DNA of 64,000 nucleotides from a bacterium (GTDB lineage: Bacteria > Patescibacteriota > Microgenomatia > UBA1400 > PJMF01): NCBI GenBank assembly GCA_027620445.1, contig JAQBYG010000003.1:175-64174 (forward strand). Direction: 5' to 3'. Shown piece after piece: positions 925-64,000 of this stretch; position 1 is the stretch's first letter, and every line of letters begins with the position of its first letter. Both the position numbers and the translations under genes were made by a program. Below the pieces are notes generated by a model. It was not told where the DNA came from and did not search any database. It saw only the letters and a program-made list of their open reading frames with translations.

Positions 925-1590
925 TTATAAACTAATCCTCCAACTTAAGGCTCGTAGTAATACCTTTAGTGTATCAATAAAAGTCATCCCTCGGTCAAGC
1001 TCATGGTAAATCGTTGTGACTGGAATTGTAACAAAATCAAGTTTTGCTTTGGCAACTCGAGCAGCGATTTCCATCTCGACAGAGTAATCGGAAGAGTTCC
1101 AGGCAACTTGTTTATATGCCCTTTTCGAGAGCGCTTTGAAGCCAGAGGGAATATCTGGGATGTACGAACCAAACAGGAGCATCAGAAACACTGAGGCAAG
1201 TCTATTGAGCATGATGCGAATGAGGGGCATATTTTCATCAAATGAACGCACGCCGAATACAACATCATGTGCTTCTAGTGCTGCTGCAAATAACTCGATT
1301 TCAGTTGCTTCATGTTGGTCGTCAGCGTCAAAAAAGATCACTCCCTCTCCATTGAGTTTAGAAAACGCGTACTCACAACCGGTTTTGAGCGCCGCGCCTT
1401 TACCCAGGTTGATTTTGTGCGACAGAACATGTTCTGAGTGCTTCTGAGCAACCGCGAGTGTTTGATCACTCGAGCCATCATCTACCACGATGTACTGGAA
1501 TCCTTGTTTATTTAGCTTTTGTAGTACAACTGGCAATTTTTTTGCTTCGTTGTAGGCGGGGATAATTACCCAGATACTATTTTTTGTCAT
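925..1590 (-). CDS. GT2 glycosyltransferase, Dpm1/GtrB-like polyprenyl-phosphate sugar synthase (soluble, no GtrA domain)
   Basis: N-terminal IIPAYNEAKKL...VVDDGSSDQT and later FFDADDQH, a DxD-like motif. GT-A fold, about 220 aa, typical of dolichyl/undecaprenyl-phosphate hexose synthases. Confidence 0.7.
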   Translation of the reverse strand: MTKNSIWVIIPAYNEAKKLPVVLQKLNKQGFQYIVVDDGSSDQTLAVAQKHSEHVLSHKINLGKGAALKTGCEYAFSKLNGEGVIFFDADDQHEATEIELFAAALEAHDVVFGVRSFDENMPLIRIMLNRLASVFLMLLFGSYIPDIPSGFKALSKRAYKQVAWNSSDYSVEMEIAARVAKAKLDFVTIPVTTIYHELDRGMTFIDTLKVLLRALSWRISL

Positions 1591-2500
1591 GCTTATACCA
1601 CTCCACCACTCGCCTTACCCCCTCTGCAAAGCCAACAGTTGGTTCCCATCCCAATCTCTCTTTCGCTTTGGAGTAATCGAGTGAGCTAGTCACCTGCTCG
1701 CCTGGGCGCTCTGGCCCATGCTCTGGTGTGATTTGTACTCCAAATGCGTTCGCAACTTGCTGAAATACTTCATTCGAGCTGATCTCTGTTGTAGTGCCGA
1801 TGTTAAAGGCGCCTATCTCTGTAGAAGTCAATGCTAGCGCATTGGCGTTTACTACATCGTCGATGTAAACGTAATCTCTGGTGTGGGTGCCATCTCCATT
1901 AATTATTGGTGTTTTCCCTGCCGCGAGCATCTCACTAAAAATAGCAACAACGCCTGACTCTCCATGCGGATTTTGTCTTGGACCATACACGTTGGAGTAG
2001 CGCAGTATGGTGTATGGAATACCATACTGTTCGAAGTAATAATTAAGGTACAGTTCACCTGATCGTTTTGAAACCCCATAGGGAGAGAGCGGTTCTTCTC
2101 GCATTTCTTCAGTAAAGGGAGTTGGTTTGTTGCCGTACATAGCACCGCCTGTTGAAGCCATGATGATTTTCTTGATTGGAATTTCTTTCGCAGCTTGCAT
2201 GATATTGAGGACGCCAATGACGTTATTTTCGGCATCAAACTGAGGGTGCTTGACTGAGTTACCTACTTGGATGTGTGCAGCGTGATGGTTGATCACCTCA
2301 GGTTGTTCTTGCGAAATGATTTGTGTCACTGCTGCAGCGTCAGTAATATCGGCAGTAATCAGCCTGGCTTTTTTGTTGACAAATTCGGTTTTTCCCGTTG
2401 AGAGATTGTCTAGTACTACAACCTCGTGACCGAGCTCGCAGTAACGATCTACTACGTGCGATGCAATAAACCCAGCTCCACCCGTTACCAAAATTTTCAT
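1577..2500 (-). CDS. NAD-dependent sugar epimerase/dehydratase (UDP-hexose 4-epimerase-like SDR)
   Basis: MKILVTGGAGFIASHVVDRY Rossmann GxxGxxG motif, a YGVSK catalytic YxxxK motif, 307 aa. Confidence 0.75.
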   Translation of the reverse strand: MKILVTGGAGFIASHVVDRYCELGHEVVVLDNLSTGKTEFVNKKARLITADITDAAAVTQIISQEQPEVINHHAAHIQVGNSVKHPQFDAENNVIGVLNIMQAAKEIPIKKIIMASTGGAMYGNKPTPFTEEMREEPLSPYGVSKRSGELYLNYYFEQYGIPYTILRYSNVYGPRQNPHGESGVVAIFSEMLAAGKTPIINGDGTHTRDYVYIDDVVNANALALTSTEIGAFNIGTTTEISSNEVFQQVANAFGVQITPEHGPERPGEQVTSSLDYSKAKERLGWEPTVGFAEGVRRVVEWYKHDKK

Positions 2501-2510
2501 ATGTATATTT

Positions 2511-3674
2511 CTAGGCTACCCAATACCCTTGTATAAACAGCAGTGCGTTGTAGATCAGTAAGCTTACACTGAGCAGTATGAGTATAACCCGAGCAAGTGT
2601 ATTTTTCAGTAAAAGTTGTGACCAAATATAAAAGAGTGGAAATGCGACCAGAATGTAGCGCGGCATACTAGACAGGGTTCCCGTTAGGGTTGGGAGCACA
2701 AGGACTCCAAGTGTAAATATGAGCCAAGAGGTCGGTACTTTGAGTTGCTGACGTTTCCAGTACCCATACGCGAGTGTTGTAAATGCAAGCACAGTTAACA
2801 AAAGCTCTTGGGCGTAGGTGAGCCAAATTCGACTAATTGGTACGGTTGCTAAGATTTTTACTCCTCTCCACAAAGTCTGCGGTAGGAGGATGAGCGATTC
2901 TTGCCTCCCGGATCCAAACTCAGACTGGACGTGGAAAAAATAGAGAGGGTCTGAGAACTCGTACTGTAAAAAAGACATGAACGCTACCAGTCCAGCTAAA
3001 GAGAGAGAAAGTAAAGCAATAATAGGCAGTTTTTTTCTGACTGCTGCAATCAAGTGACGAGACTGTGTGGGAGATAGTAACTGCCAGATCAATGCCAGAA
3101 ACACAAATACCCCAACCAATCTTGTCGAGATTGCCAAACCAGTTGCAAGTGTAGCCAAAGGCCAGTGTTTTTTTTCTGCAGCTAGAAATGCTCCGAGGAC
3201 AAAGCACAGGAAGAATGCTTCTGAGTACACCGCGCCAAAGTAAAAAGAGGTTGGGAATAGCAAGAGCAGTGCCAGGCTAAACCAGCTGACTTTACTTGAA
3301 GCTCGTTGCTTCACCAACGCATAGAAAAAATACAGCGCAAAAGTAAGCGCAATAAAATTCAGTAACAGTGACACAATTGTGTGTGAAAATCCAAACGAAA
3401 CAAACTGAATAAAGAGTGGAAAGAGCGGAAAGAAGGCTTGGATCAAACCAGTGCCGATGTAGCCTTTTTCCATGATGGTCAGGTAATGCACGCCGTCGAA
3501 GTTTGCCCAGGAGTACATCCATTGTGGTAGGCCAAGCTTGGCGAGGAGATCATACGCATAGGGAAAGCTTGGGTCGTAGGGTATAACTCGTGGCGCCAGG
3601 ATGCTGAGGGCAAACAAGCCGATTCTCCATCCCAAAACTAATACTATAATTCTTCTAAGTAGAGATTTATTCAC
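2511..3674 (-). CDS. Polytopic membrane protein, PIG-V-like GT-C mannosyltransferase family (tentative)
   Basis: 387 aa with many hydrophobic segments. N-terminal WANFDGVHYLTIMEKGY resembles the W-x-WDG-x-HY-L motif of PIG-V/GT76-type mannosyltransferases. Confidence 0.45.
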   Translation of the reverse strand: MNKSLLRRIIVLVLGWRIGLFALSILAPRVIPYDPSFPYAYDLLAKLGLPQWMYSWANFDGVHYLTIMEKGYIGTGLIQAFFPLFPLFIQFVSFGFSHTIVSLLLNFIALTFALYFFYALVKQRASSKVSWFSLALLLLFPTSFYFGAVYSEAFFLCFVLGAFLAAEKKHWPLATLATGLAISTRLVGVFVFLALIWQLLSPTQSRHLIAAVRKKLPIIALLSLSLAGLVAFMSFLQYEFSDPLYFFHVQSEFGSGRQESLILLPQTLWRGVKILATVPISRIWLTYAQELLLTVLAFTTLAYGYWKRQQLKVPTSWLIFTLGVLVLPTLTGTLSSMPRYILVAFPLFYIWSQLLLKNTLARVILILLSVSLLIYNALLFIQGYWVA

Positions 3675-5283
3675 GCCACTTTCTTGCTGAAATTAATAAC
3701 CAAGCAAGCGCAAGCAGCGAGACTGTATTTCCAACCAATCGTGCTGGTGTATTTTGAGTAAAGCGAGTGCTCACTTGGTACTCTCCCGCAGGCAAACGAT
3801 ACGCAATCCTGCCGGCGATTTCTTCACTCTGGAGGTACTCGACTTTAGCTGCCGTACCATTTTGCTCTACTGTGGTTTCCCAGCCAGGGAAGTACATGGT
3901 TGGCTCGATCACTATTGTTTCAATGCTCAATGTAAGTGAGTATTTTCTCGAGCTTCCATTCCACGAATGCACTGCAACATTTCCGGATTCTGGGTTGAGT
4001 AGCATTGGAGCAGGTTGCCAATCTCCAATTTGTGTATATGAAAACTGCCTTGTCCTATTTTCATTTTGTGTGCTTGTGCTTTGCGAGAAAACATCATAAT
4101 CAAGATTAGTTTTGTGAAAAAAATCGACCGGAGAAAGTCTTGAAATAGAAATAACTTGTACTGTCAGAACAACCATTAGCAGACGCTGCATGAGTCGACT
4201 CTGCTGTACAACGAAAATAAGTCCAGGAATCAGTAGTGCGCCAGTGAACAGACTCAGCCTCCAAGGAAATTGGATAAAGCTGGCGGCAGGAACTGCACTC
4301 CAGAGAGACTCGCTCATCCAAAGTTGACCGAGAGCTGTTGTCCATGCCAATGCCAACAATAGAAGTATTGAGTTTACACCCTGCTTTTGCCTACCGATAC
4401 AAAAAATGGTGGCTCCAAAAAGTACAACCAATATAGGAAGACCGAGTGAAAAAGAGAGCGAATCTACGTCTCCGGGGTAAGAGAATCCAAAACCAAGCGG
4501 GCTCCAAAGAAGTTGTTGCAATGAGACGAAGTGCTCGAAATAAGTAGAAACAAGCGAGGTTTCGCTAACTACAGTGTATGACATTTCTGCCACTGCAGGC
4601 AGCCAAAACCAGAAGCTGAGTGCTACTGCCCAACCAAAAACAGCAAGATGCCGCAGTAGTAGTTTTCTTGATCTATGAGATTGCATAAAAGAAATAAGAA
4701 GAAACATGCCAGTACCAAGCACGGCAGAAATGTTATGACTGAGCAAAAAAGCTGTGAAAATCACGATCGCAAACATTCGCTCCTTTCGCGAATCTGTAAG
4801 TGAAATTTTCAGTAACCAAGGTAACAGTGACAGCGCGAAAACTTCACCAATGTTTCCGCGAAAGTAGATTGTTGAAACTAAATATGGCTGTAGCAACCAA
4901 AAAATAGTAGCAAGTACTTGTGTAGGAACCGTCGCCTTAAAAACCTTGGAGAGTTGCCAAACCCCAATTGACCCAAACATGACGCTTGCTACAACAAGAA
5001 TCTTAAATGTTAGCTCATATGAAACACCGAGTATGGAAAATGGTAGAGAGAGAATGTTGGCAAGAGGGTAATTAAAGTTAAATACCGGGTATCCATAATG
5101 ATTCAGTAAGTTTGGTGCAAAACGTGGTGGAAACTGACCTTCCCTGAGAGCAATCTTATAATTGGCAAACCGAGCTAAGTGATTCTCTCCATCATGCGTG
5201 TACGGAAACGATGAGCTAAAATAAAGATGGAAGAGAGCTATAAAGGCGCTGCAGACAAGAATCAGTAAGCCAATTCGCTTCAT
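3667..5283 (-). CDS. Large polytopic membrane protein, paralog family A (uncharacterised; GT-C-like or PTPS-related membrane protein candidate)
   Basis: N-terminal signature HDGENHLARFANYKIALREGQFPPRFAPNLLNHYGYPVFNFNYPL, shared with ORFs 11910, 15533 and 34623. Multi-TM N-terminal half and a beta-rich C-terminal domain. The ORF track starts at 5352, but the start is more likely the internal Met MKRIGLL at 5283, which abuts the upstream GT4 stop. Confidence 0.5.
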   Translation of the reverse strand: MKRIGLLILVCSAFIALFHLYFSSSFPYTHDGENHLARFANYKIALREGQFPPRFAPNLLNHYGYPVFNFNYPLANILSLPFSILGVSYELTFKILVVASVMFGSIGVWQLSKVFKATVPTQVLATIFWLLQPYLVSTIYFRGNIGEVFALSLLPWLLKISLTDSRKERMFAIVIFTAFLLSHNISAVLGTGMFLLISFMQSHRSRKLLLRHLAVFGWAVALSFWFWLPAVAEMSYTVVSETSLVSTYFEHFVSLQQLLWSPLGFGFSYPGDVDSLSFSLGLPILVVLFGATIFCIGRQKQGVNSILLLLALAWTTALGQLWMSESLWSAVPAASFIQFPWRLSLFTGALLIPGLIFVVQQSRLMQRLLMVVLTVQVISISRLSPVDFFHKTNLDYDVFSQSTSTQNENRTRQFSYTQIGDWQPAPMLLNPESGNVAVHSWNGSSRKYSLTLSIETIVIEPTMYFPGWETTVEQNGTAAKVEYLQSEEIAGRIAYRLPAGEYQVSTRFTQNTPARLVGNTVSLLALAWLLISARKWRE

Positions 5284-6323
5284 GATATTGCTCTTTGATA
5301 TGCTGCAATTGTCGCTACAGCTGTTTTCTGCCAGGTAAAAGTTTTGCTCCAAGCAATACTTTCTGCTGCCAGTCTTATTCTGTGATCCTGAGTCAGGGCG
5401 TGGATTAACAATACCTGCTCTGCCAGAGATTCAGCAGTTTCAGTAGCAAAAAACGCAAGAGCTCCACCTACCTCAGGAAGCGATCCGAGTCGAGTAGAAA
5501 CAACAGGAGTGCCGCACTGCATAGCCTCAAGCACAGGCAAGCCGAAGCCCTCTGACAATGATGGTTGGACTAAGCAAAGAGCTTCAGAATACAAAACTGA
5601 AAGTACGTCTGTTTCGTCTGGACCCACATCTGTATAAAAATGCACCCGATTGGCTACGTTGCTCAGGGCAATTTGACGCTCAATTGCCTCCCATTCAGGA
5701 ATGGGCTGTGGTGTGAAGTTTTTGCCGACACAAACCAGTGCGATGCTATCAGGCAAGAATTTTAGCATTTTAATCAGCTGAGGAATATTTTTGTTGTAGT
5801 TGATATCTCCCACATACAAAACATACATTTTTGGTAGTTTGAGTCGACGACTTATTTTCGCAACAGTTGTAGTATCTTGAGGTGTAACCGCTGGATTTCC
5901 TGCAAGTGGTACTACAGATATTTTTTCTTCTGGGAATCCTAAGTACTGCAGCAGCTGTCCTTTTGAAAACTCTGAATCTGTAATGACGTGAGCAATTTTT
6001 TGCAGTGATCGCTTTTGTCTGAGATGCGCGAGCTTTCCTCGAATGCCGGGTTTGTAGTGCTCAGGAAATTGGAGAGGAATCAGATCATGAATTGTTATTA
6101 CGCCAGGAATTGAACGATGGAGATGAAGTGTGGGTGCAAATAAGTCAAAGTACGGGTAATGAATGAGATCAAACTCTCCTTTGGAAATACTTCTGCGCTT
6201 GGTGATCCTTGTTACCTCTATGCTCTCCTTTTCTAGAGCTGCAACAAGTTCCCGTGTGTACGTGCCAATGCCCCTTCGAGAGTGACCGCCAAGGAGTGGG
6301 GTTGTATCCATGGCAACTCTCAT
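5280..6323 (-). CDS. GT4 (group 1) glycosyltransferase
   Basis: C-terminal SLSEGFGLPVLEAMQCGTPVVSTRLGSLPEV is the E-x7-E retaining GT-B motif. Confidence 0.75.
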   Translation of the reverse strand: MRVAMDTTPLLGGHSRRGIGTYTRELVAALEKESIEVTRITKRRSISKGEFDLIHYPYFDLFAPTLHLHRSIPGVITIHDLIPLQFPEHYKPGIRGKLAHLRQKRSLQKIAHVITDSEFSKGQLLQYLGFPEEKISVVPLAGNPAVTPQDTTTVAKISRRLKLPKMYVLYVGDINYNKNIPQLIKMLKFLPDSIALVCVGKNFTPQPIPEWEAIERQIALSNVANRVHFYTDVGPDETDVLSVLYSEALCLVQPSLSEGFGLPVLEAMQCGTPVVSTRLGSLPEVGGALAFFATETAESLAEQVLLIHALTQDHRIRLAAESIAWSKTFTWQKTAVATIAAYQRAIS

Positions 6324-37571: not shown

Positions 37572-37580
37572 TTCTACCCT

Positions 37581-38612: not shown

Positions 38613-38625
38613 TCGAAGGGAACAT

Positions 38626-39159: not shown

Positions 39160-39165
39160 TCGGAA

Positions 39166-51776: not shown

Positions 51777-52482
51777 TCTTGAGAACTTGTGCAAACTCCA
51801 ACGCTCGAGCAATGTGAATATCGATTGTGTCCAAGAAGGCGCACTCGGCACGCATCTTATTTCTTAACAGTGGTAGCTCGGTACACCCGAGAATAATTGC
51901 TTCAGCTCCTAATCGCACGAGGTCTCTGCTAATCTCATCTAAAATGCCCGCAGAACGCTGCAGAACTGCACCCTTAACTAGTTCTTCATAGATAATGGTG
52001 TGAACCATCGTCCCAGCTGCTTCGTTTGGCACAACAACTTTCAAACCATGTGCTTCCAAACACTCTCGGTAAAAGGTGCCATACATTGTGTATGTTGTGC
52101 CGAGGAGTCCAACACACCGCAAACCTTTGCTAATGGCATCTAAAGCAACCGACTCGGGCAATGAGAGTATTGGAATCGATACTGACTGCCTGAGTGTCTC
52201 GACGGTTTTATTTGTGGTGTTTGAGCAAATGAGTGCGCACTCTGCACCACCCTTTTCAAGTCGTTGTAGTTCCTGCACCAGAAAGTCAGCCTCCAAATCG
52301 CTCCTTCCAGATTTTTGATACGCGAGTATCTCAGAGAAGTTGATGCTGGAGATCAGTAATCGAGCACTGGCATACCCGCCTTGGGCTAAGTACACTTGCT
52401 CATTAAATCGTCTGTAGTACTCCAATGTCGATGTCCAGCTGACGCCCCCAACCAAGCCAATCAGTTTACTTCGTTCTTGCAT
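51760..52482 (-). CDS. PLP-independent Asp/Glu/hydantoin-family racemase (aspartate racemase-like)
   Basis: GLVGGVSWTSTLEYY, CSNTTN and GCTELPLL correspond to the two catalytic-cysteine regions of Asp/Glu racemases. 240 aa. Confidence 0.65.
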   Translation of the reverse strand: MQERSKLIGLVGGVSWTSTLEYYRRFNEQVYLAQGGYASARLLISSINFSEILAYQKSGRSDLEADFLVQELQRLEKGGAECALICSNTTNKTVETLRQSVSIPILSLPESVALDAISKGLRCVGLLGTTYTMYGTFYRECLEAHGLKVVVPNEAAGTMVHTIIYEELVKGAVLQRSAGILDEISRDLVRLGAEAIILGCTELPLLRNKMRAECAFLDTIDIHIARALEFAQVLKRTVVC

Positions 52483-53561: not shown

Positions 53562-54334
53562 CTCACACCTCCTATACTTTTACTTTTTGGAATTCCGTAG
53601 AGAGCAGTTTGATTAGTTTGTAACCCATACGCTTGCGTGCCCAACTGAAAATGCCACCACTCGCTAGCCAAACCGGTAAACATACCAACACTTCTCATCG
53701 CGTCGTGTAGAATTCTCCTATTTCTTCTAGCCAAAAAATCCTGTTCAGTTACACAATTTTCTTCGTTCTCAAAATACTGCGTGTGTGCTTTTTCGGAAAA
53801 ATCATCAAAATCAGTGCCCATCCATAACTCTTGGCCAAATTCGTCCAAGATCGTGACGTCTACCGCCCCTCCAGTCAGATGATGGGATGGCGCGCTTGGA
53901 TCAGCTGATGGCAAGGCGACAAATTGTTGGCAAAGACGTTCTAGCTGCTGGGAGTCGAGTGCGCCGTACTGAGCACAAAGTCGAGCGTAATAACGATCGT
54001 AAATTTCCTTTTGCAACGACACCGGCCTCCACGCATCCCAAATTACCAAGCGATACCCCGACGGAAGTGCTTCTGCAGCGAGTAATAATCGCTCAAAAAC
54101 ACCAGCGCGAATTTCTTGCTCGAAGCTCGCTTCTCTAAAACCTCTAATAAAATACTGCGGAGAAATCGCCAATCGCCTCCCACGATACTTTTGAAGTGCT
54201 ACCAGTGGCTCACCGTTGTCTTCAATTTTTACCGATTGCCACCCTTCGATTGAAGTAATTCCTGGTATGGGATGTTTTCCCGCATCCAAAACATCGAGTT
54301 CTGCGTCTGGAAAGTATTCGTACGTTTCGATCAT
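53558..54334 (-). CDS. VanX-type D-Ala-D-Ala dipeptidase (peptidase M15D)
   Basis: SHHLTGGAVDVT (S-x-H-x2-G-x-A-x-D zinc motif), RLVIWDAWRP and EWWHFQ are diagnostic for VanX/DdpX. ATGA overlap with the ligase gene. Confidence 0.7.
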   Translation of the reverse strand: MIETYEYFPDAELDVLDAGKHPIPGITSIEGWQSVKIEDNGEPLVALQKYRGRRLAISPQYFIRGFREASFEQEIRAGVFERLLLAAEALPSGYRLVIWDAWRPVSLQKEIYDRYYARLCAQYGALDSQQLERLCQQFVALPSADPSAPSHHLTGGAVDVTILDEFGQELWMGTDFDDFSEKAHTQYFENEENCVTEQDFLARRNRRILHDAMRSVGMFTGLASEWWHFQLGTQAYGLQTNQTALYGIPKSKSIGGVR

Positions 54335-54514: not shown

Positions 54515-55195
54515 ATGATTAAACACATCATTGCACTCGTACAATCAGATGTTGTGCAAACGAAGTTTCGAATAAACGAGATGCTAGCGGCCACTGCCTG
54601 TCACACGACAACTGACATCACATCTGCGTATAAATTATTCGAGAAGAATAAGATTGATTTGCTTATTGTAGAGATTCCAGGATATTCTAACGATTTACAC
54701 GATCTCGTTTGCTATGTGCATGAAATCTCCTTTGCCACAAAAATTCTTATTGTTTTCTTGCAATCAAAAACGGTGCATCATGAAATCTATCTCAACTCCG
54801 GAGCCGACCTCTGCCTGCAACAACCATTCTCGAAACGCTGTCTAGAGCTCTACTGCAATAAACTGCTGAGTGTAAACAAATTCAAAGCAGGCTCACTTCT
54901 CTACCTCGGTTCGGCAGCATTGCAGCCAGAAACAGCTCATCTGTATATCGGCTCACACCATCAGCAACTAAGAAAGCGTGAAGCAGAAATTCTGGAGTTC
55001 TTTTTTCGAAATAAAAATCAAATCATCACGCGAGAGCGGTTGATTGATAGCATCTGGGGATTTACCGAAGAAATACCCTCATATACTTCGATCGATGTCT
55101 ATGTTCGTCGCTTGAGAATGCAACTTAAGAACTCAGGAGCGATACTTCAAACAGTGCGAGGAACAGGGTATGTTGCTAGAGAAGTTGTAAATTAG
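54515..55195 (+). CDS. OmpR/PhoB-family winged-helix transcriptional regulator with degenerate (phospho-acceptor-less) receiver domain
   Basis: C-terminal LRKREAEILEFFFRNKNQIITRERLIDSIWG...YVRRLRMQL...VRGTGY is a trans_reg_C wHTH. In the receiver the acidic pair is QSD, the phospho-Asp position reads LLIVEIPG (Glu), and the conserved Lys region reads GADLCLQQPF (Gln). Confidence 0.6.
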   Translation: MIKHIIALVQSDVVQTKFRINEMLAATACHTTTDITSAYKLFEKNKIDLLIVEIPGYSNDLHDLVCYVHEISFATKILIVFLQSKTVHHEIYLNSGADLCLQQPFSKRCLELYCNKLLSVNKFKAGSLLYLGSAALQPETAHLYIGSHHQQLRKREAEILEFFFRNKNQIITRERLIDSIWGFTEEIPSYTSIDVYVRRLRMQLKNSGAILQTVRGTGYVAREVVN

Positions 55196-56762
55196 TGATA
55201 TCCCAAACCTGCAAACATGGTGCATTGTCCGGCCGGCAAAACTCAGCTACCAACACAAGATCTTCTGTCTGCATCTGCATGCGATGGCTATTTACCACCA
55301 ACCAAACTGTTTCGTAGGCTGAGGCTTGTTTCAGAAACGCATCAGGAATACCTCGTACTGGCTGTCCTATCCCTTGCACCATAATGTTTGTGACATCTCG
55401 CCTGTGTAAGTACATCAGAATGCCATCTGGTAACGTGCCAAAAAACCCTTCCGTTGCCACCGCAATCGTCCCTTGTTTCGCCTGTGCATTAATCAATGCC
55501 ACCGCTTCCTGAATACCATGGCCAGAGGACCACTCAGATAGATACTGCGTCACGTCTGCAGAAACAAATGGGGTAGCATTTGCGTTGGTGAGAGATGGGT
55601 ATATGAATGCGACAGATCTTACTAGAGAGTTTGCCAGAAGTAGTACCGCAACTACGGCAAAGACTGCTCGTTTTCGCAGTGATAACTCACCATCTTTGGC
55701 TCGACGAAACAACTCGCTGAGGGCAATACTTGCTGCGAGGGTAAGAGGGATAATAGCAGGCATAAAATATCTGGGATACACAACTTTGCCCAACACAGCA
55801 ATCGGGCCAATAAAACTCAATGCTGCCAACAGCAGCACAAAAATAGCTCTTCTCTGTTTTCGCATTAAAAGTCCGATCAAAGATACAATTGTGGCTGTGG
55901 GCGTGAGATACAGCAAGAAATACCTGCCGTATGTAGGAAAGCTGATAATCGTATCTCTCCATTTTCCCTCTAAGACTTCTTGCCATGGGTAAAGAAAATC
56001 ACTGCCACGACTAAACAATTGCGAAAATACGGGTTGCGTTTTTAACACTAGAAAAAATACGAGTCCTACAGCAATTACTGACCCGGACTGCAGCAGTAGT
56101 AACAACCGCTCTGTATACGATTTATTCTTTGGCAAAAAAGCAAAGAACACGAACGTCGGCGTAAACAAAATCGCCGGTACTTTGGTCCAAAGCGCTAAAC
56201 CAAACAGAATGCCACTCAAGAGCAGCCAGGGCTCTCTCAGAGCAACACGAAATACTTTTTTGAGTTGCAACAAATCTCTATTCTGGAATGTGAATGAGCG
56301 CGTCACAACTTCCAAGTAACTTGCAAGACTGAGAGTAAGAAACAAAGTAAGAGTTCCGTCAATTAATGCCATACGATGATGAAAAAACCAGAATGGCAGG
56401 ATCGTCACAAACAAAGCACCGAGAACCTTGGCAAGTTTCGTACCACCTAGTAAGCGAATGCACCAAACATTGGCCCCAATCTGACCAACGCCTACCAATA
56501 CGGAAACAATCCGGGCTGCGTACAGCTGATCAGAAAAGACGAATTGGAAAGGCACGAGAAGCCACATAAACAACGGTGTTTTGCCATCATTCATTGGAAA
56601 AAATAAATACTCTCTCCAATCGTCAATGATCAGTTGCGCCCAACGAATATATATTGACTCATCTGCAAACACCGGTAAGTTAAGCAGGCCCCACAGATGG
56701 GTCACAAGATACACACCAATGATCGCAGTAAAAATTAATTTAACCATCGACTGTTTTCCCAA
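55176..56762 (-). CDS. GT-C membrane glycosyltransferase, ArnT/PMT_2-like (divergent family 1 member)
   Basis: FADESIYIRWAQLI...MNDGKTPLFMW in the first loop, at least 11 TM segments, and a C-terminal extracytoplasmic domain. Confidence 0.55.
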   Translation of the reverse strand: MGKQSMVKLIFTAIIGVYLVTHLWGLLNLPVFADESIYIRWAQLIIDDWREYLFFPMNDGKTPLFMWLLVPFQFVFSDQLYAARIVSVLVGVGQIGANVWCIRLLGGTKLAKVLGALFVTILPFWFFHHRMALIDGTLTLFLTLSLASYLEVVTRSFTFQNRDLLQLKKVFRVALREPWLLLSGILFGLALWTKVPAILFTPTFVFFAFLPKNKSYTERLLLLLQSGSVIAVGLVFFLVLKTQPVFSQLFSRGSDFLYPWQEVLEGKWRDTIISFPTYGRYFLLYLTPTATIVSLIGLLMRKQRRAIFVLLLAALSFIGPIAVLGKVVYPRYFMPAIIPLTLAASIALSELFRRAKDGELSLRKRAVFAVVAVLLLANSLVRSVAFIYPSLTNANATPFVSADVTQYLSEWSSGHGIQEAVALINAQAKQGTIAVATEGFFGTLPDGILMYLHRRDVTNIMVQGIGQPVRGIPDAFLKQASAYETVWLVVNSHRMQMQTEDLVLVAEFCRPDNAPCLQVWDITNLQLL

Positions 56763-58011
56763 CCAAAATACTTCCGTGCTCTGTTTTGGGTCTAACTATA
56801 GACCATTGCCAAAGTAACCACATGGCAGGAATCCCTAAGGAAATGTACTTCTGCCATTGCACGGTATCTGCCTCATACCCACCCGCATACAGCCACGGTA
56901 CATAGCGCAAGAGTGCAGCGATTGAACACACGAGCCAAAATACTCTCCACTTTGCTGAACCAATCAACGGCAACCAGACGAGAGACCAAGTCAGGTACCA
57001 CGGCAAGTACTGCTGCGACTGGTTTGTAAGAAGTGGCAGGAGCAGCAACGCAGCGGCTGAGTATGGCAGTACACGAAGTATGCGTTCCCAAATACCTTGG
57101 GTTAGCAGTTGCAAAAATCGCTTGGGAAGCCTGAGTCTAGTGAAGCTTCCTTCCTCAAACCGCTCGAGCGCAAGTATGGTGAGCCAAATGGGAAGCAGTA
57201 CTATAGTGGCAAATTTGATCGAAACAGAAAAAGCTAACAACAGCAATGACCCAAACACTCTCGATCTGAATGCAAAACGTTTTCGTGCCAGCAGAAAACT
57301 AAAGCTAATCAGCGCTGGCGCAAGCATCCACAAGTCATTGTGACTGTTCGCCACAATCTCTATCAACACGAGTGGGTTAAGAAAAAAGATTGCAGCATCG
57401 CTGAGCGTCAAGCGCTTGCCCATCAGCCCTGCAAGCTGTTTGAGTCCGACATACACAAGAACAAGACTAGCAACAGAAAACACTCGAAACAGCAACCACG
57501 TCCAGGTAAATTTGCCAAAGCCGAGCATAAATGGGATCAAAGAGAGACCAGTCCAACCAAAGCCATATGGCGCGGGAGTGTGCGTATTGTGCATAAATCG
57601 AGTCCAGTCATCACTGAACTCAAGTGCAGTCTGCGCATGCGGATTGGCTTGATAAATCAACACCATTTTGGCATTGAACAAGTAATTAAAAACGTCATGC
57701 GAGAGCGCATTGTAGGAAAAAAGAAGCGGGGAAATAATAAGAGTAAACCACAGTATGGTTCGGGAAAGCGTGAGGTGAGTAATTCCTCTCAACCAACGCT
57801 GCATTTGTAACCCCAACCAAAACATACAAGCAATCAGCAAGACATACACTGTGGTATAGAAAGTTACAAAGCCGCGAGCAATTGACCAAATCCAGTTCTG
57901 AAAAATCCAGTAGGGTTCCCAAGATGTTAATACTAAATTTGGATCAGCCAAGCCATAGCTCCAAATGGCGTAGCTCAGCAAACAAACCCAGAGTGAAACA
58001 ACATATCGCAT
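56740..58011 (-). CDS. Polytopic membrane protein, unknown family (GT-C candidate)
   Basis: HDVFNYLFNAKMVLIYQANPHAQTALEFSDDW loop. About 11 hydrophobic segments. Start taken at the Met at 58011 (MRYVVSLW), which abuts the upstream GT2 stop. Confidence 0.4.
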   Translation of the reverse strand: MRYVVSLWVCLLSYAIWSYGLADPNLVLTSWEPYWIFQNWIWSIARGFVTFYTTVYVLLIACMFWLGLQMQRWLRGITHLTLSRTILWFTLIISPLLFSYNALSHDVFNYLFNAKMVLIYQANPHAQTALEFSDDWTRFMHNTHTPAPYGFGWTGLSLIPFMLGFGKFTWTWLLFRVFSVASLVLVYVGLKQLAGLMGKRLTLSDAAIFFLNPLVLIEIVANSHNDLWMLAPALISFSFLLARKRFAFRSRVFGSLLLLAFSVSIKFATIVLLPIWLTILALERFEEGSFTRLRLPKRFLQLLTQGIWERILRVLPYSAAALLLLPLLTNQSQQYLPWYLTWSLVWLPLIGSAKWRVFWLVCSIAALLRYVPWLYAGGYEADTVQWQKYISLGIPAMWLLWQWSIVRPKTEHGSILVGKTVDG

Positions 58012-58012
58012 A

Positions 58013-58777
58013 CTACTCGTACCTGCCCCGCAGTGCGGCGAAGCGAATGCGCACGATATCAAAAAACATTCGCAGTGAATCTTTGACTGGACTCACTCTA
58101 TTTGTTTCGCGGTGTTCCCAATGGATTGGTACTTCAGCAATCTTGTACTTCATTTTGCGAGCAATGTACAACAGCTCGACATCAAATGCCCCCGTGTACG
58201 CATCCCGGCGTTCTGCCAAATTACCGTAGACCGACAATCGAGAAAACAAATCATTCGTTGCTCGATCAGAAAACAATTTAAAACCACACTGAGTGTCGTA
58301 GATACCAGGCACAGCCAAAATCTGCACAACGAGATTAAACACACGACCCATCAAATGCCGATAAAATGGCTCGTCATCACGCTGAGCACCGGCAATCTCT
58401 CTCGATCCAATTACAACGTCGTATTGATCCCTGGCAATCGCGAGCAGTTTCTCAACCTCACTGAGTGGAGTGGATTGATCAAAATCGGTAAATAAGCGCC
58501 AAGAACCGGTGGCGGCCAACATACCAGAGCTCACAGTTGCAGCTTTGCCCGCATGTTTGTTTTCGAGCACACGAACCCCTTGATTTTTTGAGGCAAATGC
58601 ATGTAGTAACTCTACTGTTCCATCACTAGATCCGTCATCACTCAGAATAACTTCCCAGGTATAGTCTTGTGCTTGCAGATAGGTAAGAACTGTATCAAGT
58701 ACCCCTGAAGCAAAGTTTTTCTGCTCGTTATATGACGGGATAATGACAGAGAGAAAGGGCTGCATAGTACTTATCAT
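58013..58777 (-). CDS. GT2 Dpm1/GtrB-like polyprenyl-phosphate sugar synthase
   Basis: LSVIIPSYNEQKNF...ILSDDGSSDGT...TDFDQS motifs. ATGA overlap with the upstream GT-C gene. Confidence 0.75.
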   Translation of the reverse strand: MISTMQPFLSVIIPSYNEQKNFASGVLDTVLTYLQAQDYTWEVILSDDGSSDGTVELLHAFASKNQGVRVLENKHAGKAATVSSGMLAATGSWRLFTDFDQSTPLSEVEKLLAIARDQYDVVIGSREIAGAQRDDEPFYRHLMGRVFNLVVQILAVPGIYDTQCGFKLFSDRATNDLFSRLSVYGNLAERRDAYTGAFDVELLYIARKMKYKIAEVPIHWEHRETNRVSPVKDSLRMFFDIVRIRFAALRGRYE

Positions 58778-60288
58778 ACACTTGAGGAATCTGTACGCAA
58801 CACAAACAGCTCCACTCCATTTGGTAACTCAATAATCTGACTGGGAGTTTTGTTGGGAAATACCACTAATTCATAGATCGGCAACGAAAGTGGGTCAGGT
58901 GCCACGCGCTCTTCGTTGATAATTATCAGTGTCTCAGCGGTGTGATGTAGTTCTGGTTCCAGCGGTTTTTTCTCAGGATTACTGCTCAAGAAATACCTGT
59001 AGTTCGTGCCATAAATGTCTCTAGTGGCAGAGAGAAGCATGATCTCATACTTCTCCCCTGGCTCAACGAGCTTGTGAATCTCGCTCGCAGTTTCAGCGAT
59101 CAAACTGATATTAAGACCGGCCGTTGCAAACGAGTACCTTGACCAATTACAAATCAGATAAGCCAACACTGTGGCGAGCACAACGAGCTTTGCAAAGACA
59201 CGCTTGCTCTCCCAGAGTTTGCCAAGTGCTATCCCGAAGACAACACAAGCAAAAGGGATAACAAATAAAATATAGTGATCAAATACTGAACTCGTGTAGA
59301 AACTAAGGCCAATAATCGCTGTACCAAGAAACAGCGCCAACAACTGCAAAGCTGCGCGCTGTCTTCCTCGCAATCGGTATAGTAGCCAGGCTACTACTAC
59401 AAGTACACCCCTAAGCAACCAAGTATTGAGCACACGATTTTCTCCGATCTGGGTCTCAAAAAAGATGTGCAGTGATCTCCCGTGTGTTTCGGATAAAATG
59501 CGCTGGGCACGTACCCACCAAGGTGCAGACTCGTTGAAACTATCGCTTTGGAATAACTCAGCCGCTCCCTGAATATTCAGACCCTCGTGCTTGATGTCAA
59601 ATAAAACCAGCGGCAGCATGCTCATCAATACAATACCAATAGCCACTCCAGACCAAAGAAAAAACGGCTTTCTCGCAGTTCTTTTGCGCCAGGCACGCCT
59701 AACTGCCAATATCCAAACAATTCCAACAACAGGTAGTACAAGCAAGGTGATGTAATGCAGTTGCAGTAAGATTGCAGTTGTGAGCGCTATCCATACCAGT
59801 TGTCGAGGAGAATTGTCTTGCCAAAACTTGAGCAGTGCAAAAAATAAGAGAATGCTAAAAATTGGCTCGATGTTTGGATTCCAACTAAAGCGTGACTGAC
59901 TGACAACAGAGCTAGAAAATGCAAAAAAAATACTGCTCAACAAAGCGACTTTTTCGCCAAACACTGCTTTCAACTCTCTATACAACAGAATAATTGCTGC
60001 AATACTCACGACGGCTACAGCCACCGCCGGACCAAGCGGACTTGGGTAACTCAAAAATAGCCAGGGGAGCATAAAATAGTAGTAAAACGGTCCGAGATAT
60101 AAGTTGCCTACACTCGTCACCGGACCAATAAACACCAAATCCCTCTCTAAAAACATCTTCGAGACCACAAGCGCGTCTCTGCCCTGATCGCCAAGAAACA
60201 TGAGGGTGCCAGACAGATTATAAAATCGGACAAAAATTGCGGCCAATAACAGCGCCACAAACAGCAACTTTGCAGGCGATATTCGCAT
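58774..60288 (-). CDS. Polytopic membrane protein, GT-C-like, family 3 (paralog of 10344)
   Basis: GDQGRDALVVSKMFLERDLVFIGPVTSVGNLYLGPFYYYFM, with about 12 TM segments. Confidence 0.5.
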   Translation of the reverse strand: MRISPAKLLFVALLLAAIFVRFYNLSGTLMFLGDQGRDALVVSKMFLERDLVFIGPVTSVGNLYLGPFYYYFMLPWLFLSYPSPLGPAVAVAVVSIAAIILLYRELKAVFGEKVALLSSIFFAFSSSVVSQSRFSWNPNIEPIFSILLFFALLKFWQDNSPRQLVWIALTTAILLQLHYITLLVLPVVGIVWILAVRRAWRKRTARKPFFLWSGVAIGIVLMSMLPLVLFDIKHEGLNIQGAAELFQSDSFNESAPWWVRAQRILSETHGRSLHIFFETQIGENRVLNTWLLRGVLVVVAWLLYRLRGRQRAALQLLALFLGTAIIGLSFYTSSVFDHYILFVIPFACVVFGIALGKLWESKRVFAKLVVLATVLAYLICNWSRYSFATAGLNISLIAETASEIHKLVEPGEKYEIMLLSATRDIYGTNYRYFLSSNPEKKPLEPELHHTAETLIIINEERVAPDPLSLPIYELVVFPNKTPSQIIELPNGVELFVLRTDSSSV

Positions 60289-60300
60289 ACCAAATCCTGG

Positions 60301-61491
60301 CTACTTCTTTTTCCAAATAAACTTGTTGTACGCGAAAAAGTTCCAGCCAATACCAAGTAAAATCCCAGTGACTGCAAAAATCAGGCCAGTCTCAACCACA
60401 AAATTGATAACTGGTACTGTAAAAAGCGGCTTGAGACCAATGGTCGCCTCTCCAATTGCAGCGAGCCCTAGTTGAATCAAAATAGAACCTACCGAAGTTA
60501 GATTGAACTGTAAAAACTTGAGTAACTTTTTGCCCTCCTCTAGCTTGCGATCTGCAAAGGTCCAACCGTTATTCAAAATGAAATTGACAATAATGGCACT
60601 CTCAATACTCAAAAACGAAGCAACAAAAAAAGTGGTAAAAAAACCGATGTCAAACGTTGGCAACAAAAACCTGTACAGCATTAGCGAGCTCAGCTGAACC
60701 GCAGCACCCGTCGCCCCAACAACTAAAAACTTAAACACACGCATCGCCATAATCTCTTGTAACCTCATGCGGAAAATAAACATAAGCGGTTTTACCAGAT
60801 ACTCTGACCCCATCTTTGACTCACCAGCGGTGCGGTCAATAAAGTGATATGCGATATTTGGATCAATCACAAAGTTTTTGCGCAGAGCGTAATACAGAAA
60901 ACCTATTTGAAAAGTATAGCCAGAAAACAATCCAGAGTGCAAAAGAGGGTGTACTGCCTCATACACCGGTTTAGTAATCGCACGGTAGCCCGACGTCCAG
61001 TCCCGAATTTTAAAATTGGCAAAAACAGCCGAGATGAGCAAGTTTGCGCCTACGCTCATAATTTTTCTGTGTAAACCCCAATTTTTTGGCATACTCCCAC
61101 CTGGGATATAGCGTGTCCCTAGTACCATCTCACTCCCGCCCTCAATACTCTTGAGAAATAAGGGAATTTTCTTTGGGTCATGTGAGAGGTCAGCGTCAAA
61201 CTCAAACACGACGTCTGCCTGCAGCTTGCCAAAAGCATGCGCCATTCCTGCCAAATATGCACCGCCCAAACCGCTTTTCTGTTGATTTAAAAGAAGCTCG
61301 ACGTTTGAGTGTTGCTTGTGTAGCTCACGGACAACTTCATACGTTTTATCAGGTGAAGTATCATCCACAACCAAAATACTCATTTTCCAACAGGAAACTG
61401 CAGTAAAAGCCTCGAGCACTGCTGCGACGGTTCGCTTGATATTCTCACGTTCGTTATAGGTTGGGATAATAACAACCGCAGTTTTAGACAT
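60301..61491 (-). CDS. GT2 Dpm1/GtrB-like polyprenyl-phosphate sugar synthase fused to a C-terminal GtrA-like 4-TM domain
   Basis: N-terminal VVIIPTYNEREN...VVDDTSPDKT...FDADLSHDP, and a C-terminal FLVVGATGAAVQLSSLMLYRFLL...NFILNNGWTF...IGWNFFAYNKFIWKKK typical of GtrA family membrane domains. Confidence 0.75.
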   Translation of the reverse strand: MSKTAVVIIPTYNERENIKRTVAAVLEAFTAVSCWKMSILVVDDTSPDKTYEVVRELHKQHSNVELLLNQQKSGLGGAYLAGMAHAFGKLQADVVFEFDADLSHDPKKIPLFLKSIEGGSEMVLGTRYIPGGSMPKNWGLHRKIMSVGANLLISAVFANFKIRDWTSGYRAITKPVYEAVHPLLHSGLFSGYTFQIGFLYYALRKNFVIDPNIAYHFIDRTAGESKMGSEYLVKPLMFIFRMRLQEIMAMRVFKFLVVGATGAAVQLSSLMLYRFLLPTFDIGFFTTFFVASFLSIESAIIVNFILNNGWTFADRKLEEGKKLLKFLQFNLTSVGSILIQLGLAAIGEATIGLKPLFTVPVINFVVETGLIFAVTGILLGIGWNFFAYNKFIWKKK

Positions 61492-61496
61492 ACACC

Positions 61497-62480
61497 CTAT
61501 TCACTTTCCTTTTCCAACTCTGCTTGCACCATAATCCTCACCAACTCATCAAATCGCACTTTTGGCTCCCAACCAAGTTTCTCTTTGGCCTTGGTTGCGT
61601 CACCAATCAGCAAGTCAACTTCTGCTGGTCGATCGTAAGCAGAATTGTGCTTGTAGACAGCTTCCCAGTCTGGCAAACCTGCTTCTGCACAAGCGGCCAT
61701 CAAAAACTCCTTGACCGAGTGTGTTTCCCCTGTAGCAATGACATAATCCTCTGCTCGATCTTGTTGGAGCATCAACCACATGGCTTCAACATAGTCTTTG
61801 GCGTATCCCCAGTCGCGCTTAGAGTCTAAGTTCCCAAGCTCGACATGCGTCTGTTTGCCCAACTTGACCCGAGCAACAGCATTGGCAATTTTTCTAGTCA
61901 CAAACTCTAGCCCACGGCGAGGTGACTCGTGATTAAACAAAATGCCAGAACACGCGAATAAGTCGTACGACTCTCGATAATTGACCGTAATCCAGTGTCC
62001 ATAGACTTTCGCCACGCCGTAGGGAGAGCGAGGGTAAAATGGAGTTTCTTCTGTTTGCGGCACGCTCTGTACTTTGCCAAACATTTCACTCGAACTAGCT
62101 TGGTAAAATTTTGCTTGTGGGCATGCAAGTCGCACGGCCTCAAGGATGCGGACAACCCCAATAGCTGTGAACTCTCCGGTAAGAACGGGCTGATCCCAAC
62201 TTGTTTGTACAAATGACTGCGCTGCTAAGTTATACACCTCATCCGGCTGAATCTTTTGTAAGGGATAGGTAAGGGAGTTTTGGTCGATCAAATCACCGCT
62301 AATGAGCTCCAGGTTCTCGTTGTGCATCAGATGATCAATACGAGCAAAATTTTGCGTGCTGGTGCGGCGAGTTAGACCGTAGACCTTATAACCTTTGTCG
62401 AGCAAAAGCTCGGCAAGGTATGAGCCGTCCTGGCCAGTAACTCCTGTTATAAAGGCTTTTTTCATGGGATTGATCTCCAA
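61497..62480 (-). CDS. gmd: GDP-mannose 4,6-dehydratase
   Basis: [45 protein letters not shown] and the overall pattern of Gmd. 327 aa. Confidence 0.85.
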
Positions 62481-63424
62481 TACTCAATTATACGTTGTAC
62501 TGTCTCGCGCAAGGAAATTTCTGGTCGCCAACCCAAGGCTGTAATCTTACTAATATCAGCTCTGAGTTCTGCAATATCAGCTGGACGCATTCTGGCTTGG
62601 TCGACCTCAATTGGTACTTCTACTGTTGCAAGCTGTATCAGCTCATCAACAACTGTCTGCATTGCAACACCTACGCCTGATCCAATGTTGTACACCTCGC
62701 CCACAACACCATGCTGCATGACTGTTGTGTAGGCACGGACCACGTCTTTGACATCGAGAATGTCGCGAATTGCAGCCAGATTACCAACTCGCAAAGCTGG
62801 TAGCTCACCACGTTCGACTTTCACTACTTGCTCCGCAAATGCTGGTATCGCAAAGGCAGTCGTCTGACGCTCTCCTGTGTGATTAAAGGGTCGGACGCGA
62901 AGAATCTGCAGGCCGTAACTTTCTGCGTACGCATACGCAAGCAAGTCTTGGGCAACTTTGGAGACGGCATACGGGTTGAGCGGTCGAAATGGCTGATCTT
63001 CTGTGATTGGTAACTCGCTCGGCGCAACTTTGCCATACTCGAGGGCTGAGCCCACAATCAAAATTCGCGCAGACGGCACAACTGTTTGGAGCGCTGTTAA
63101 AACAGACAGTTGCAGCTGCATGTTGACCGAAGTGATCTTTGCCGCTTGCTCGAAACTACTGCCAACCTCCGCCATTGCGGCTAGGTGATAAATCTCAGAA
63201 GGGCGAACCTCAGAAAAAAGAGCCTTTGTCTGCTCCAAGTTTGCGAGGTCTAACTCATGTATTACTACCGTATTCCCAACTCCTTCAGGTAGAGCCTCTG
63301 CGCCTTTTTTTAGAGTTGTGACATGGATTGTTGCGTCTGGCTCAGTTTTGAGCAAGTGTTCTGCCAAGTGTGAGCCAGCAAAGCCTGTTCCACCGGTGAT
63401 GAGAATGTGTTTAGAATCTGACAC
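62462..63424 (-). CDS. GDP-4-dehydro-6-deoxy-D-mannose reductase-like SDR (Rmd-like; GDP-D-rhamnose branch)
   Basis: [40 protein letters not shown], and a C-terminal GEVYNIGSG...RMRPADI...LGWRP follow the Rmd pattern rather than Fcl. Confidence 0.6.
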
Positions 63425-64000
63425 TATGGCTGTCTCCGTGCGATACCTGCATAGACATACCCATGAGCGGTTAAAATTGTCGGCTCAAATTGGTTGCGAG
63501 CGTCAAGAAAAAACTGCTTCCTCTCCAGTTTCGTTTTACCAAAATCGAAGGTCAAAAACTCTGGCCACTCGATCAAAACGAGCACAACATCTGCGGCCGC
63601 CACAGCCTCTTCAGGTGAAGTGGCAAACTGCAAACCTGGCTGTTCACCGAGGATTTTGCTAATTTGAGCTGTCGCTTTTGGATCATAACCAACTACCTCC
63701 GCTCCGTGCTGCAGTAACCACGGAATAACCTGCAAACTAGGAGCGTCTCTGGTGTCATCAGTGTTTGGTTTGAATGAGAGGCCCAAAACCGCAACAGCTT
63801 TATCGCCCCACGACCCAACCACTTCTGTCCAACGCGAAAAAACTCGCTCCACTCTTGATTCATTGAGCTCTGACAACAGTGAAAAAATATTTGGCAACTC
63901 ATCCTGCGATTTGGCAAAGTGAGCCAACTCTCGCACATCCTTGGGGAAACAAGAGCCACCGTATCCCAAACCTGGATACCAATAGTGTTTGCCGATTCTC
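63424..64000 (-). CDS. UDP-glucose/GDP-mannose dehydrogenase family, C-terminal part (N-terminus beyond window end)
   Basis: GYGGSCFPKD catalytic-cysteine motif. The reading frame stays open to position 64000 (..GKHYWYPGLGYGG), so the gene continues off-window. Confidence 0.7.
   Translation of the reverse strand, partial: RIGKHYWYPGLGYGGSCFPKDVRELAHFAKSQDELPNIFSLLSELNESRVERVFSRWTEVVGSWGDKAVAVLGLSFKPNTDDTRDAPSLQVIPWLLQHGAEVVGYDPKATAQISKILGEQPGLQFATSPEEAVAAADVVLVLIEWPEFLTFDFGKTKLERKQFFLDARNQFEPTILTAHGYVYAGIARRQP

Follow-up and report, generated by a model that had tools for sequence, protein, structure and literature searches.

What is a lipid-sugar synthase fused to a GtrA-like membrane domain doing in the chromosome of a member of the Patescibacteria, which genes stand beside it, and which sugars might it handle? 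The protein that raises these questions (396 amino acids, aa) is encoded at positions 60301-61491 of a stretch of 64,000 nucleotides (nt) of contig JAQBYG010000003.1 (assembly GCA_027620445.1, metagenome-assembled; Microgenomatia), called here the window. A first-pass annotation, made from the letters alone, had described it as a DPM1-type catalytic domain of family GT2 joined to a C-terminal GtrA-like four-helix domain, followed by a GT-C gene, another GT2 and a further polytopic protein. All four open reading frames (ORFs) are indeed present on the minus strand, where they had been placed. The reading favoured here, at a probability of roughly 80%, is that they belong to a conserved chromosomal operon for "multi-component transmembrane glycosylation" in the Patescibacteria (Microgenomates/Paceibacteria type). 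Machinery of this kind is known; what sets the operon apart is chiefly its eight-gene arrangement, shared by dozens of related species. Domain architecture, folds, homology, gene order and conservation were computed directly, and the account starts from them.

A DPM1-like synthase with its own membrane domain

The fusion itself is borne out. PF00535 (Glycos_transf_2) matches residues 7-142 (E 2.9e-27), and PF04138 (GtrA_DPMS_TM) matches residues 254-393 (E 8.4e-15; 55.4 bits against a cutoff of 26.1) over model positions 1-117 of 117. As a single sequence searched against the PDB, the protein finds the dolichyl-phosphate-mannose synthase (DPMS) of Pyrococcus furiosus (PfDPMS; 5MLZ, E 1.3e-36). 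A profile of its 34-member family aligns with residues 25-366 of the 374 of the 5MLZ chain (E 2.3e-51), an end-to-end alignment that spans the catalytic domain, the interface helices and all of the membrane helices. Next in rank among its solved relatives come ArnC and GtrB, the only further polyprenyl-phosphate monosaccharide synthases whose structure is known.

Which residues of the archaeal enzyme are kept? Those described for PfDPMS (PMC5526996, PMC12992685) were mapped onto the 34-member family, and Asp89-Ala-Asp91, His94, Arg117-Tyr118, Arg131, Ser135 and Asn277 (PfDPMS numbering) are invariant in 34/34; in the window protein the equivalents of all but the last are D99-A-D101, H104, R127-Y128, R142 and S146. 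In PfDPMS, Asp89 and His94 contact O2 and O3 of mannose, and Arg117, Arg131 and Ser135 are ligands of the lipid phosphate (PMC5526996).

Is the protein then a type-III DPMS? The strict definition of this type (motif 89-DADxQHPP-96 and others) limits it to hyperthermophilic archaea (PMC12992685). The architecture of the type, one chain with a GT2 and a GtrA-like four-helix transmembrane (TM) domain, is present (PF00535 plus PF04138), but the strict 2026 motifs are not. The window protein reads DADLSHDP, and in 34/34 members Ser takes the place of Q93 and Asp that of P95. Three of the four elements of the lipid-phosphate set are there (R127, Y128, R142 and S146 are kept), and Lys178 is replaced by Thr193 (KIL becoming TFQ). 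In the TM pocket and gate, N277 is kept as N303, N248 is Q266 and F338 is T368 (Thr or Ser in the family), the alignment of TM helix 4 being uncertain.

The motifs match those of eukaryotic DPM1: DADLSHxPK, GTRY, GYxFQ and FxDRxxGESKxG. The catalytic domain is 38% identical to that of human DPM1 over 230 residues (E 1e-40); in both comparisons the human sequence was entered by hand. K178T and Q93S had been considered as a sign of a non-mannose donor, and this idea was dropped: human DPM1 has the same pattern, and the substitutions, being eukaryotic DPM1 motifs, therefore give no argument for a different donor. By its sequence, the catalytic domain is of the DPM1 type. The best solved relatives of both GT2s of the operon, the fusion and the 254-aa protein discussed below, are the polyprenyl-phosphate sugar synthases DPMS, GtrB and ArnC, and both GT2s retain, besides the DxD, the Ser/Thr-Arg and the second Arg by which the lipid phosphate is bound. 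The features expected of polyprenyl-phosphate synthases, whose lack would have spoken against the first-pass annotation, are found in both.

Another question concerns the membrane domain. Its four hydrophobic segments (~246-273, 274-309, 323-347 and 355-388) fit the three to four TM helices of GtrA, and its identity to PfDPMS is 26%, against 34% for the catalytic domain. When the TM domain alone was searched against the PDB with phmmer there was no match; the family profile was required to align it with the TM helices of PfDPMS, an alignment which, together with PF04138, upholds the GtrA assignment. Across 79 orthologs the mean frequency of the top residue is 0.67 in the TM domain versus 0.74 in the catalytic domain, and nine intramembrane polar residues are conserved at 97% or more: Q266, E297, N303, N308, N330, S333, S336, Q340 and N384. 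This pattern goes beyond the needs of a mere anchor; it fits, and does not prove, the polar-pocket translocation that has been proposed for PfDPMS (PMC12992685), and the fused domain probably carries the lipid-linked sugar across the membrane. A profile search finds the GtrA-like domain once in the window, and a search of all six frames of the window gave no stand-alone GtrA gene.

The combination of GT2 and GtrA is not new. An exhaustive search with the TM domain alone returned 449 cluster representatives, among them many divergent proteins of ~360-415 aa with the GT2+GtrA architecture, as well as stand-alone GtrA proteins of ~150 aa, and at least seven of eight divergent 50%-identity clusters tested carry the fusion. 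Because of these many divergent proteins of the same architecture, of the very name of PF04138 in Pfam ("GtrA/DPMS, transmembrane domain") and of the solved structure 5MLZ, the fusion is to be regarded as a common, already catalogued architecture. Its appeal is of another kind: it is the DPM1-like counterpart, from a mesophile, of the archaeal enzyme for which flipping of its own product has lately been proposed, and could therefore be used to test the flipping idea. If this view is correct, a mesophilic bacterial fusion of synthase and flippase would be a tractable system for asking who flips lipids of the dolichyl-phosphate-mannose (Dol-P-Man) type.

A conserved operon of eight genes

How far is the neighbourhood of the fusion kept? 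The scan for relatives, with one genome per species, matched 435 genomes, and the best 80 of them are essentially all Patescibacteria. Gene positions were counted in the 78 loci with a called ORF, the denominators being the loci with sequence at the position in question (Table 1). The order ugd-rmd-gmd-DPMS·GtrA-GTC-GT2-GTC-GTC is near-invariant in these loci, across which the identity of the fusion itself ranges from 53 to 88%. The three upstream genes, which the first-pass annotation had missed, are part of the same conserved unit. All the junctions of the operon are overlaps or spacers of at most 12 nt.

Table 1. Genes of the operon, its convergent neighbour and the two further GT2 sites of the window. 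Junctions are with the next gene of the same operon or site in the direction of transcription; the loci column gives those with the ortholog at the expected position.
Feature	Positions	Strand	Junction	Loci	Basis or match
ugd, 3' part (predicted UDP-glucose 6-dehydrogenase); gene leaves the window at its end	63424..64000	-		70/71 (three genes upstream of the DPMS gene)	Full-length ortholog L002:6772-8067
rmd (predicted GDP-4-keto-6-deoxy-D-mannose reductase)	62462..63424	-	ATGA overlap, 62462-62465	75/75	PDB matches
gmd (predicted GDP-mannose 4,6-dehydratase)	61497..62465	-	5 nt	75/75	TIGR01472, PF16363
DPMS·GtrA, catalytic domain, aa 1-244 (DPM1-type GT2, predicted polyprenyl-phosphate hexose synthase)	60760..61491	-			5MLZ, 1.3e-36
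DPMS·GtrA, four-helix GtrA/DPMS membrane domain, aa 245-396 plus stop codon (putative lipid-sugar translocator)	60301..60759	-	12 nt		PF04138
ArnT-like-fold GT-C, 504 aa	58774..60288	-	ATGA overlap, 58774-58777	72/73	PMT_2, AlphaFold model, Foldseek
Soluble DPM1/GtrB/ArnC-like GT2, 254 aa (candidate second polyprenyl-phosphate sugar synthase)	58013..58777	-	1 nt	71/72	Family profile
MptA/MptB-family polytopic glycosyltransferase, 423 aa, ~8 TM (predicted)	56740..58011	-	8-nt overlap	67/69	Precomputed PF26314
PMT-like GT-C, 523-528 aa	55176..56747	-		53/63	PF02366
OmpR-type winged-helix regulator, convergent	54515..55195	+		45/58	Trans_reg_C, 7e-18
Second site: YfhO/PTPS-type GT-C	11910-13598	+	ATGA overlap, 13595-13598		Paralog of the YfhO/PTPS-type GT-Cs
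Second site: DPM1-like GT2	13595-14311	+	ATGA overlap, 14308-14311		AglJ 1.2e-22, PpgS 2.5e-19
Second site: 8-TM protein	14308-15555	+
Third site (925..5352): PpgS-like GT2	925-1590	-			PpgS 6.7e-27
Third site: SDR epimerase	1577-2500	-
Third site: 9-TM protein	2511-3674	-			Weak matches alone, to putative glycopolymer-formation families
Third site: YfhO/PTPS-type GT-C	3667-5352	-			PTPS_related 6.7e-13

Two start codons deserve a comment. The ATG of gmd overlaps the stop codon of rmd as ATGA, and the longest gmd ORF starts at a TTG at 62480. The ATGA coupling of the 254-aa GT2 to the preceding GT-C gene, pointed out in the first-pass annotation, is real as an overlap of letters, although orthologs and an independent gene call start at a conserved Met four codons downstream (250 aa), which may be the true start.

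The operon is a conserved chromosomal core unit, and not a mobile serotype-conversion module. An eight-gene arrangement that stays almost unchanged across dozens of species is the mark of a pathway central to the envelope, not of a variable decoration. In the Patescibacteria, whose genomes are tiny and whose life is spent attached to other cells, any surface function that is retained is likely important. A search of the literature found no description of this operon in Patescibacteria; one paper mentions gmd and rmd, only as phage auxiliary genes.

Partner glycosyltransferases

What are the genes that follow the fusion? The 504-aa protein reaches 29.0 bits with PMT_2 (cutoff 26.1). Its AlphaFold model (pLDDT 90.7) leads Foldseek to ArnT (5F15; E 2.4e-8, TM 0.63), with 38 further GT-C structures among the next matches, and GDQGRD is invariant in the first outer loop of the family. 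The GT-C that had been proposed here is thus fold-confirmed on the predicted model, as an ArnT-like enzyme. Structure prediction was required for this assignment: the profiles of the 504-aa and 423-aa families gave no matches when searched against PDB sequences.

The 254-aa GT2 has no predicted TM helix. The best PDB matches of its family profile are DPMS (1.4e-21), GtrB (3.9e-16) and ArnC (2.9e-15), and it keeps the DxD, the Ser-Arg and the second Arg, with Thr at the equivalent of His94; this last change suggests a sugar different from that of the fusion.

The polytopic 423-aa protein carries a precomputed PF26314 (MptA_B_family) assignment, as do all of its top homologs (120/120). An hhalign comparison of this Mpt-like family with the ArnT-like family was negative.

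The last gene encodes a PMT-like protein (PF02366 PMT, 25.3 bits against a cutoff of 22.7), whose family profile matches Pmt4 (9I5K, 1.3e-5). Its invariant residues are D29-E30, the DE motif after TM1, together with C504 and C511 in a Cys-containing C-terminal outer domain.

Nucleotide sugars and a proposed mechanism

The upstream genes offer a hint about the sugars. The best PDB matches of the rmd product are 2PK3, a GDP-6-deoxy-D-lyxo-4-hexulose reductase (1.2e-60, full length), and 6X3B, an Rmd (8e-45). The gmd product scores 444 bits with TIGR01472 (cutoff 415) and matches PF16363 at E 5.5e-137. As for ugd, the full-length ortholog listed in Table 1 is closer to UDP-glucose dehydrogenase (4A7P, 4.2e-100) than to GDP-mannose dehydrogenase (3.4e-63). 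From this homology the operon is predicted to make GDP-D-rhamnose, or conceivably its C4 epimer, through Gmd and Rmd, and UDP-glucuronate through Ugd, so that the sugars put on the lipid may be other than plain mannose.

From the genes we infer which sugars are used, that they are flipped and what accepts them, and the proposal runs as follows. In the cytoplasm, Ugd would make UDP-glucuronate, and Gmd and Rmd would turn GDP-mannose into GDP-D-rhamnose. On the inner side of the membrane, the two GT2s of the DPMS/GtrB/ArnC class would each load polyprenyl phosphate with one sugar taken from a nucleotide donor. The product of the fusion would be polyprenyl-P-mannose or polyprenyl-P-D-rhamnose, and is expected to be manno-configured because the contacts of DPM1 and DPMS for a manno-configured GDP-sugar are kept. 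The fused GtrA-like domain would serve both as anchor and as probable carrier of the lipid-linked sugar across the membrane. Outside, the ArnT-like, MptA/B-like and PMT-like GT-Cs would use the lipid-linked sugars to build or decorate an envelope glycan or glycoprotein. The mechanism outlined by the first-pass annotation, in which a lipid-linked sugar is synthesised and then transferred by an extracytoplasmic GT-C, is thereby supported, and the pairing of GT2 and GT-C genes on which it was built is real.

Weighing the alternatives

Does the fusion take GDP-mannose, GDP-D-rhamnose or both? One answer, a narrower form of the favoured reading, is that it takes GDP-mannose alone, in a system that handles plain polyprenyl-phosphate-mannose (PPM) as in the actinobacteria: the GT-Cs of the MptA/B-like and PMT-like kinds would make a lipomannan-like glycan, O-mannosylate secreted proteins, or both, and Gmd/Rmd and Ugd would feed other enzymes. 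The catalytic domain is DPM1-like and homologous to a proven GDP-mannose enzyme, and the characterised members of the MptA_B and PMT families use PPM or Dol-P-Man; yet gmd and rmd lie immediately upstream at every locus counted, a tighter linkage than that of one of the GT-Cs, and the operon holds no other cytoplasmic glycosyltransferase to consume GDP-D-rhamnose. On balance, the chance of this answer comes to a little under one in two. The same two facts keep the rhamnose option open: since Asp89 and His94 read O2 and O3, and D-rhamnose is mannose at C2-C4, the fusion could use either donor. A second answer is that the system is one of lipid-linked 6-deoxyhexoses, in which one GT2, most likely the fusion, would make polyprenyl-P-D-rhamnose, the other would load glucuronate, and the GT-Cs would then assemble a glycan of rhamnose and uronic acid outside the membrane. 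In support of this are the co-conservation of ugd-rmd-gmd and their tight packing with both GT2 genes, the identity of the two sugars at C2-C4, where the conserved Asp and His read the sugar (PMC5526996), and the Thr of the second GT2, with its suggestion of a different sugar. No residue evidence, on the other hand, favours rhamnose over mannose: no difference specific to a 6-deoxy donor is seen, K178T and Q93S being common to the mannose-using human DPM1. To our knowledge, moreover, no polyprenyl-P-rhamnose donor has been described, and this system is accordingly held to be rather unlikely, even if the tight linkage to GDP-D-rhamnose genes does raise the possibility of a lipid-linked deoxyhexose donor. 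Its boldest form, a pathway not described before, is more doubtful still: the fusion would both make and flip polyprenyl-P-D-rhamnose, the soluble GT2 would load glucuronate, and the three GT-Cs would polymerise a core envelope lipoglycan characteristic of the Microgenomates/Paceibacteria.

Two further readings concern the kind of system and were evoked by the comparisons of the first-pass annotation. Its likeness to phage-type glucosylation holds as an analogy of parts, given that a lipid-sugar synthase, a GtrA-like domain and a GT-C are found in both. Taken literally, as a phage-derived GtrABC serotype-conversion module for the variable decoration of a surface polysaccharide, it is very improbable. 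The phage records contain no close or full-length relative of the fusion (the best are archaeal-virus DPMS homologs at 33% identity), the genes keep a fixed order in species whose fusion proteins diverge by up to 47%, the neighbours are housekeeping and peptidoglycan genes, and GtrB in the strict sense carries two helices at its C-terminus and no GtrA domain. Just as little credit can be given to an Arn-like pathway (Ugd, an ArnA-type decarboxylase, ArnC and ArnT) that would give resistance to cationic peptides by adding an amino-pentose to a lipid: the operon does have Ugd, an SDR, an ArnC-like GT2 and an ArnT-fold GT-C, but the best matches of the SDR are Rmd enzymes and not ArnA, and the operon holds no aminotransferase, formyltransferase or deformylase, by which the ArnC/ArnT parallel is excluded.

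What speaks against the favoured reading of a conserved transmembrane glycosylation system? The family departs from the strict type-III DPMS definition at Q93S, P95D, K178T, N248Q and F338T/S, the replacement residues being themselves near-invariant across the family, and the alignment of TM helix 4 to PfDPMS has low identity (26% over the entire TM domain). No GtrA-type protein has ever been directly shown to flip lipids (PMC11127046). For the 423-aa protein, the local Pfam scan gave no PF26314, even at E up to 1, and the top four Foldseek matches of its model (pLDDT 89) are GT-C enzymes (AglB, ArnT) at weak E values of 0.3-1.2. Gmd/Rmd and Ugd could also feed glycosyltransferases encoded outside the operon, and synteny was counted only on the 80 closest of the 435 matching genomes. 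As regards PF26314 at 56740-58011, two Pfam versions apparently differ.

Other sites and neighbouring genes

Does the pairing recur elsewhere in the window, as the first-pass annotation had it, at 11910/13595/14308 and at 925/2511? The profile of the DPMS catalytic domain selects exactly three small GT2s, 58013 (6.6e-22), 925 (3.3e-20) and 13595 (2.9e-11), every other GT2 in the window scoring 5e-5 or weaker. The recurrence thus stands for the three GT2s that it named and for 11910, a GT-C; it does not stand for 14308 and 2511, which are not demonstrated GT-Cs. No Pfam family was found for 14308, and hhalign of the Mpt-like family against both proteins was negative. Their neighbours 3667, 11910 and 15503 are of GT-C type. 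With neither a Pfam family nor detectable kin among the other GT-C families, these two polytopic proteins beside DPM1-like GT2s may be unrecognised GT-C types. Altogether, ~17 genes of GT-C type fill 27.5 kb, or 43% of the window (3667-36281 and 55176-60288): an eight-member PMT_2-type group with a DE motif, a four-member YfhO/PTPS-type group with an HD motif, the pair 58774 and 10344, and singletons. Such an expansion is extreme for a small-genome bacterium.

The window also holds a separate Wzx-type polysaccharide locus (33154-40044), with a Wzx flippase, an LCP ligase (36280-37413) and rmlB/C/D for dTDP-L-rhamnose; taken together with gmd and rmd, the rml genes mean that the bacterium would make donors of both L- and D-rhamnose. 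A plus-strand ORF of 177 aa in this locus (38626-39159) matches both dTDP_sugar_isom (RmlC) and Polysacc_synt_C, an unusual pairing at that size.

Downstream, the regulator of Table 1 is transcribed towards the operon, with an overlap of 20 nt with the last operon gene. The Pfam scan gave no receiver-domain match for it. It is often kept beside the operon, on the opposite strand, and may be regarded as a candidate for a functional link. Genes for peptidoglycan precursors adjoin on the minus strand (51760-54334): a VanX-like D-Ala-D-Ala dipeptidase, Ddl and glutamate racemase. Beyond ugd, related loci have genes of the housekeeping kind: a tRNA synthetase with a DD-carboxypeptidase in some, rml genes with trmD in others. 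In related genomes the DD-carboxypeptidase lies directly upstream of ugd. PADLOC reported no defence-system match. Many public records that contain the operon (among loci L005-L081) bear titles that point to Pseudomonadales, Vitreimonas, Limisphaerales, Methylococcaceae, Actinomycetota or TM6; the isolate names in some of these contain "PATE", and the titles are probably taxonomic mislabels, or the contigs mis-binned.

Comparison with known systems

To what, then, can the operon be compared? The closest solved relative of the fusion is the type-III DPMS of P. furiosus (PDB 5MLZ/5MM0/5MM1/9EP0; PMC5526996, PMC12992685), in which one polypeptide likewise unites a GT2 domain, interface helices and a four-helix GtrA-like domain; its DAD motif, His94, Arg117-Tyr118, Arg131, Ser135 and Asn277 are kept in the window family. 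Unlike it, the window protein belongs to a bacterial, mesophilic host, has DADLSHDP, K178T, N248Q, F338T/S and a hydrophobic residue in place of R341, and its lipid would be a bacterial polyprenol, not dolichol. With eukaryotic DPM1 it has catalytic motifs in common (on the human sequence entered by hand), but DPM1 itself has at most a single membrane helix and depends on DPM2/DPM3 in mammals (PMC5526996), whereas here a GtrA-like domain is fused.

The mycobacterial PPM pathway (Ppm1, MptA/MptB and Pmt) likewise has a DPM1-like lipid-mannose synthase, a GT-C of the MptA_B family and a PMT-like GT-C, and the PpgS/Rv3632/Rv3779 system has its parallel in the PpgS-like soluble GT2s found elsewhere in the window. 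Ppm1 is fused or paired with a membrane protein different from the GtrA-like domain of the fusion; moreover, no phosphatidylinositol-mannoside genes were seen in the window, and the phylum is another one. The phage GtrA-GtrB-Gtr(type) systems of Shigella and Salmonella follow the same logic of lipid-glucose synthase, GtrA and GT-C (PMC11127046). The window operon, in contrast, is not phage-borne, is conserved and not serotype-specific, probably relies on a GDP-sugar as donor, and its synthase lacks the two-helix anchor of GtrB.

The multi-component systems of Gram-positive bacteria (CsbB/GtcA/YfhO, CsdAB-CD-EF with CflA, and GacI/J/K/L; PMC8035078) are similar in their adjacent GT-A/GT-C pairs with PMT_2 or YfhO GT-Cs, in having one GtrA-type component for several pairs, and in their LCP-attached envelope polymers. 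Reviews describe both the gene pairs and the sharing of one GtrA-type flippase (PMC8035078, PMC11127046), and in Lactococcus lactis the single flippase CflA serves three GT-A/GT-C pairs (PMC8035078). The window operon has what defines such systems, a GT-A of the polyprenyl-phosphate sugar synthase class and, after a 12-nt spacer, an adjoining transferase of the GT-C fold. It differs in that GT-A and GtrA are fused, in that three GT-Cs, two GT-As and nucleotide-sugar genes share one operon, and in that it is a conserved core unit, not a strain-variable decoration. The known principles are left unchanged by it, and they are extended to an uncultured phylum.

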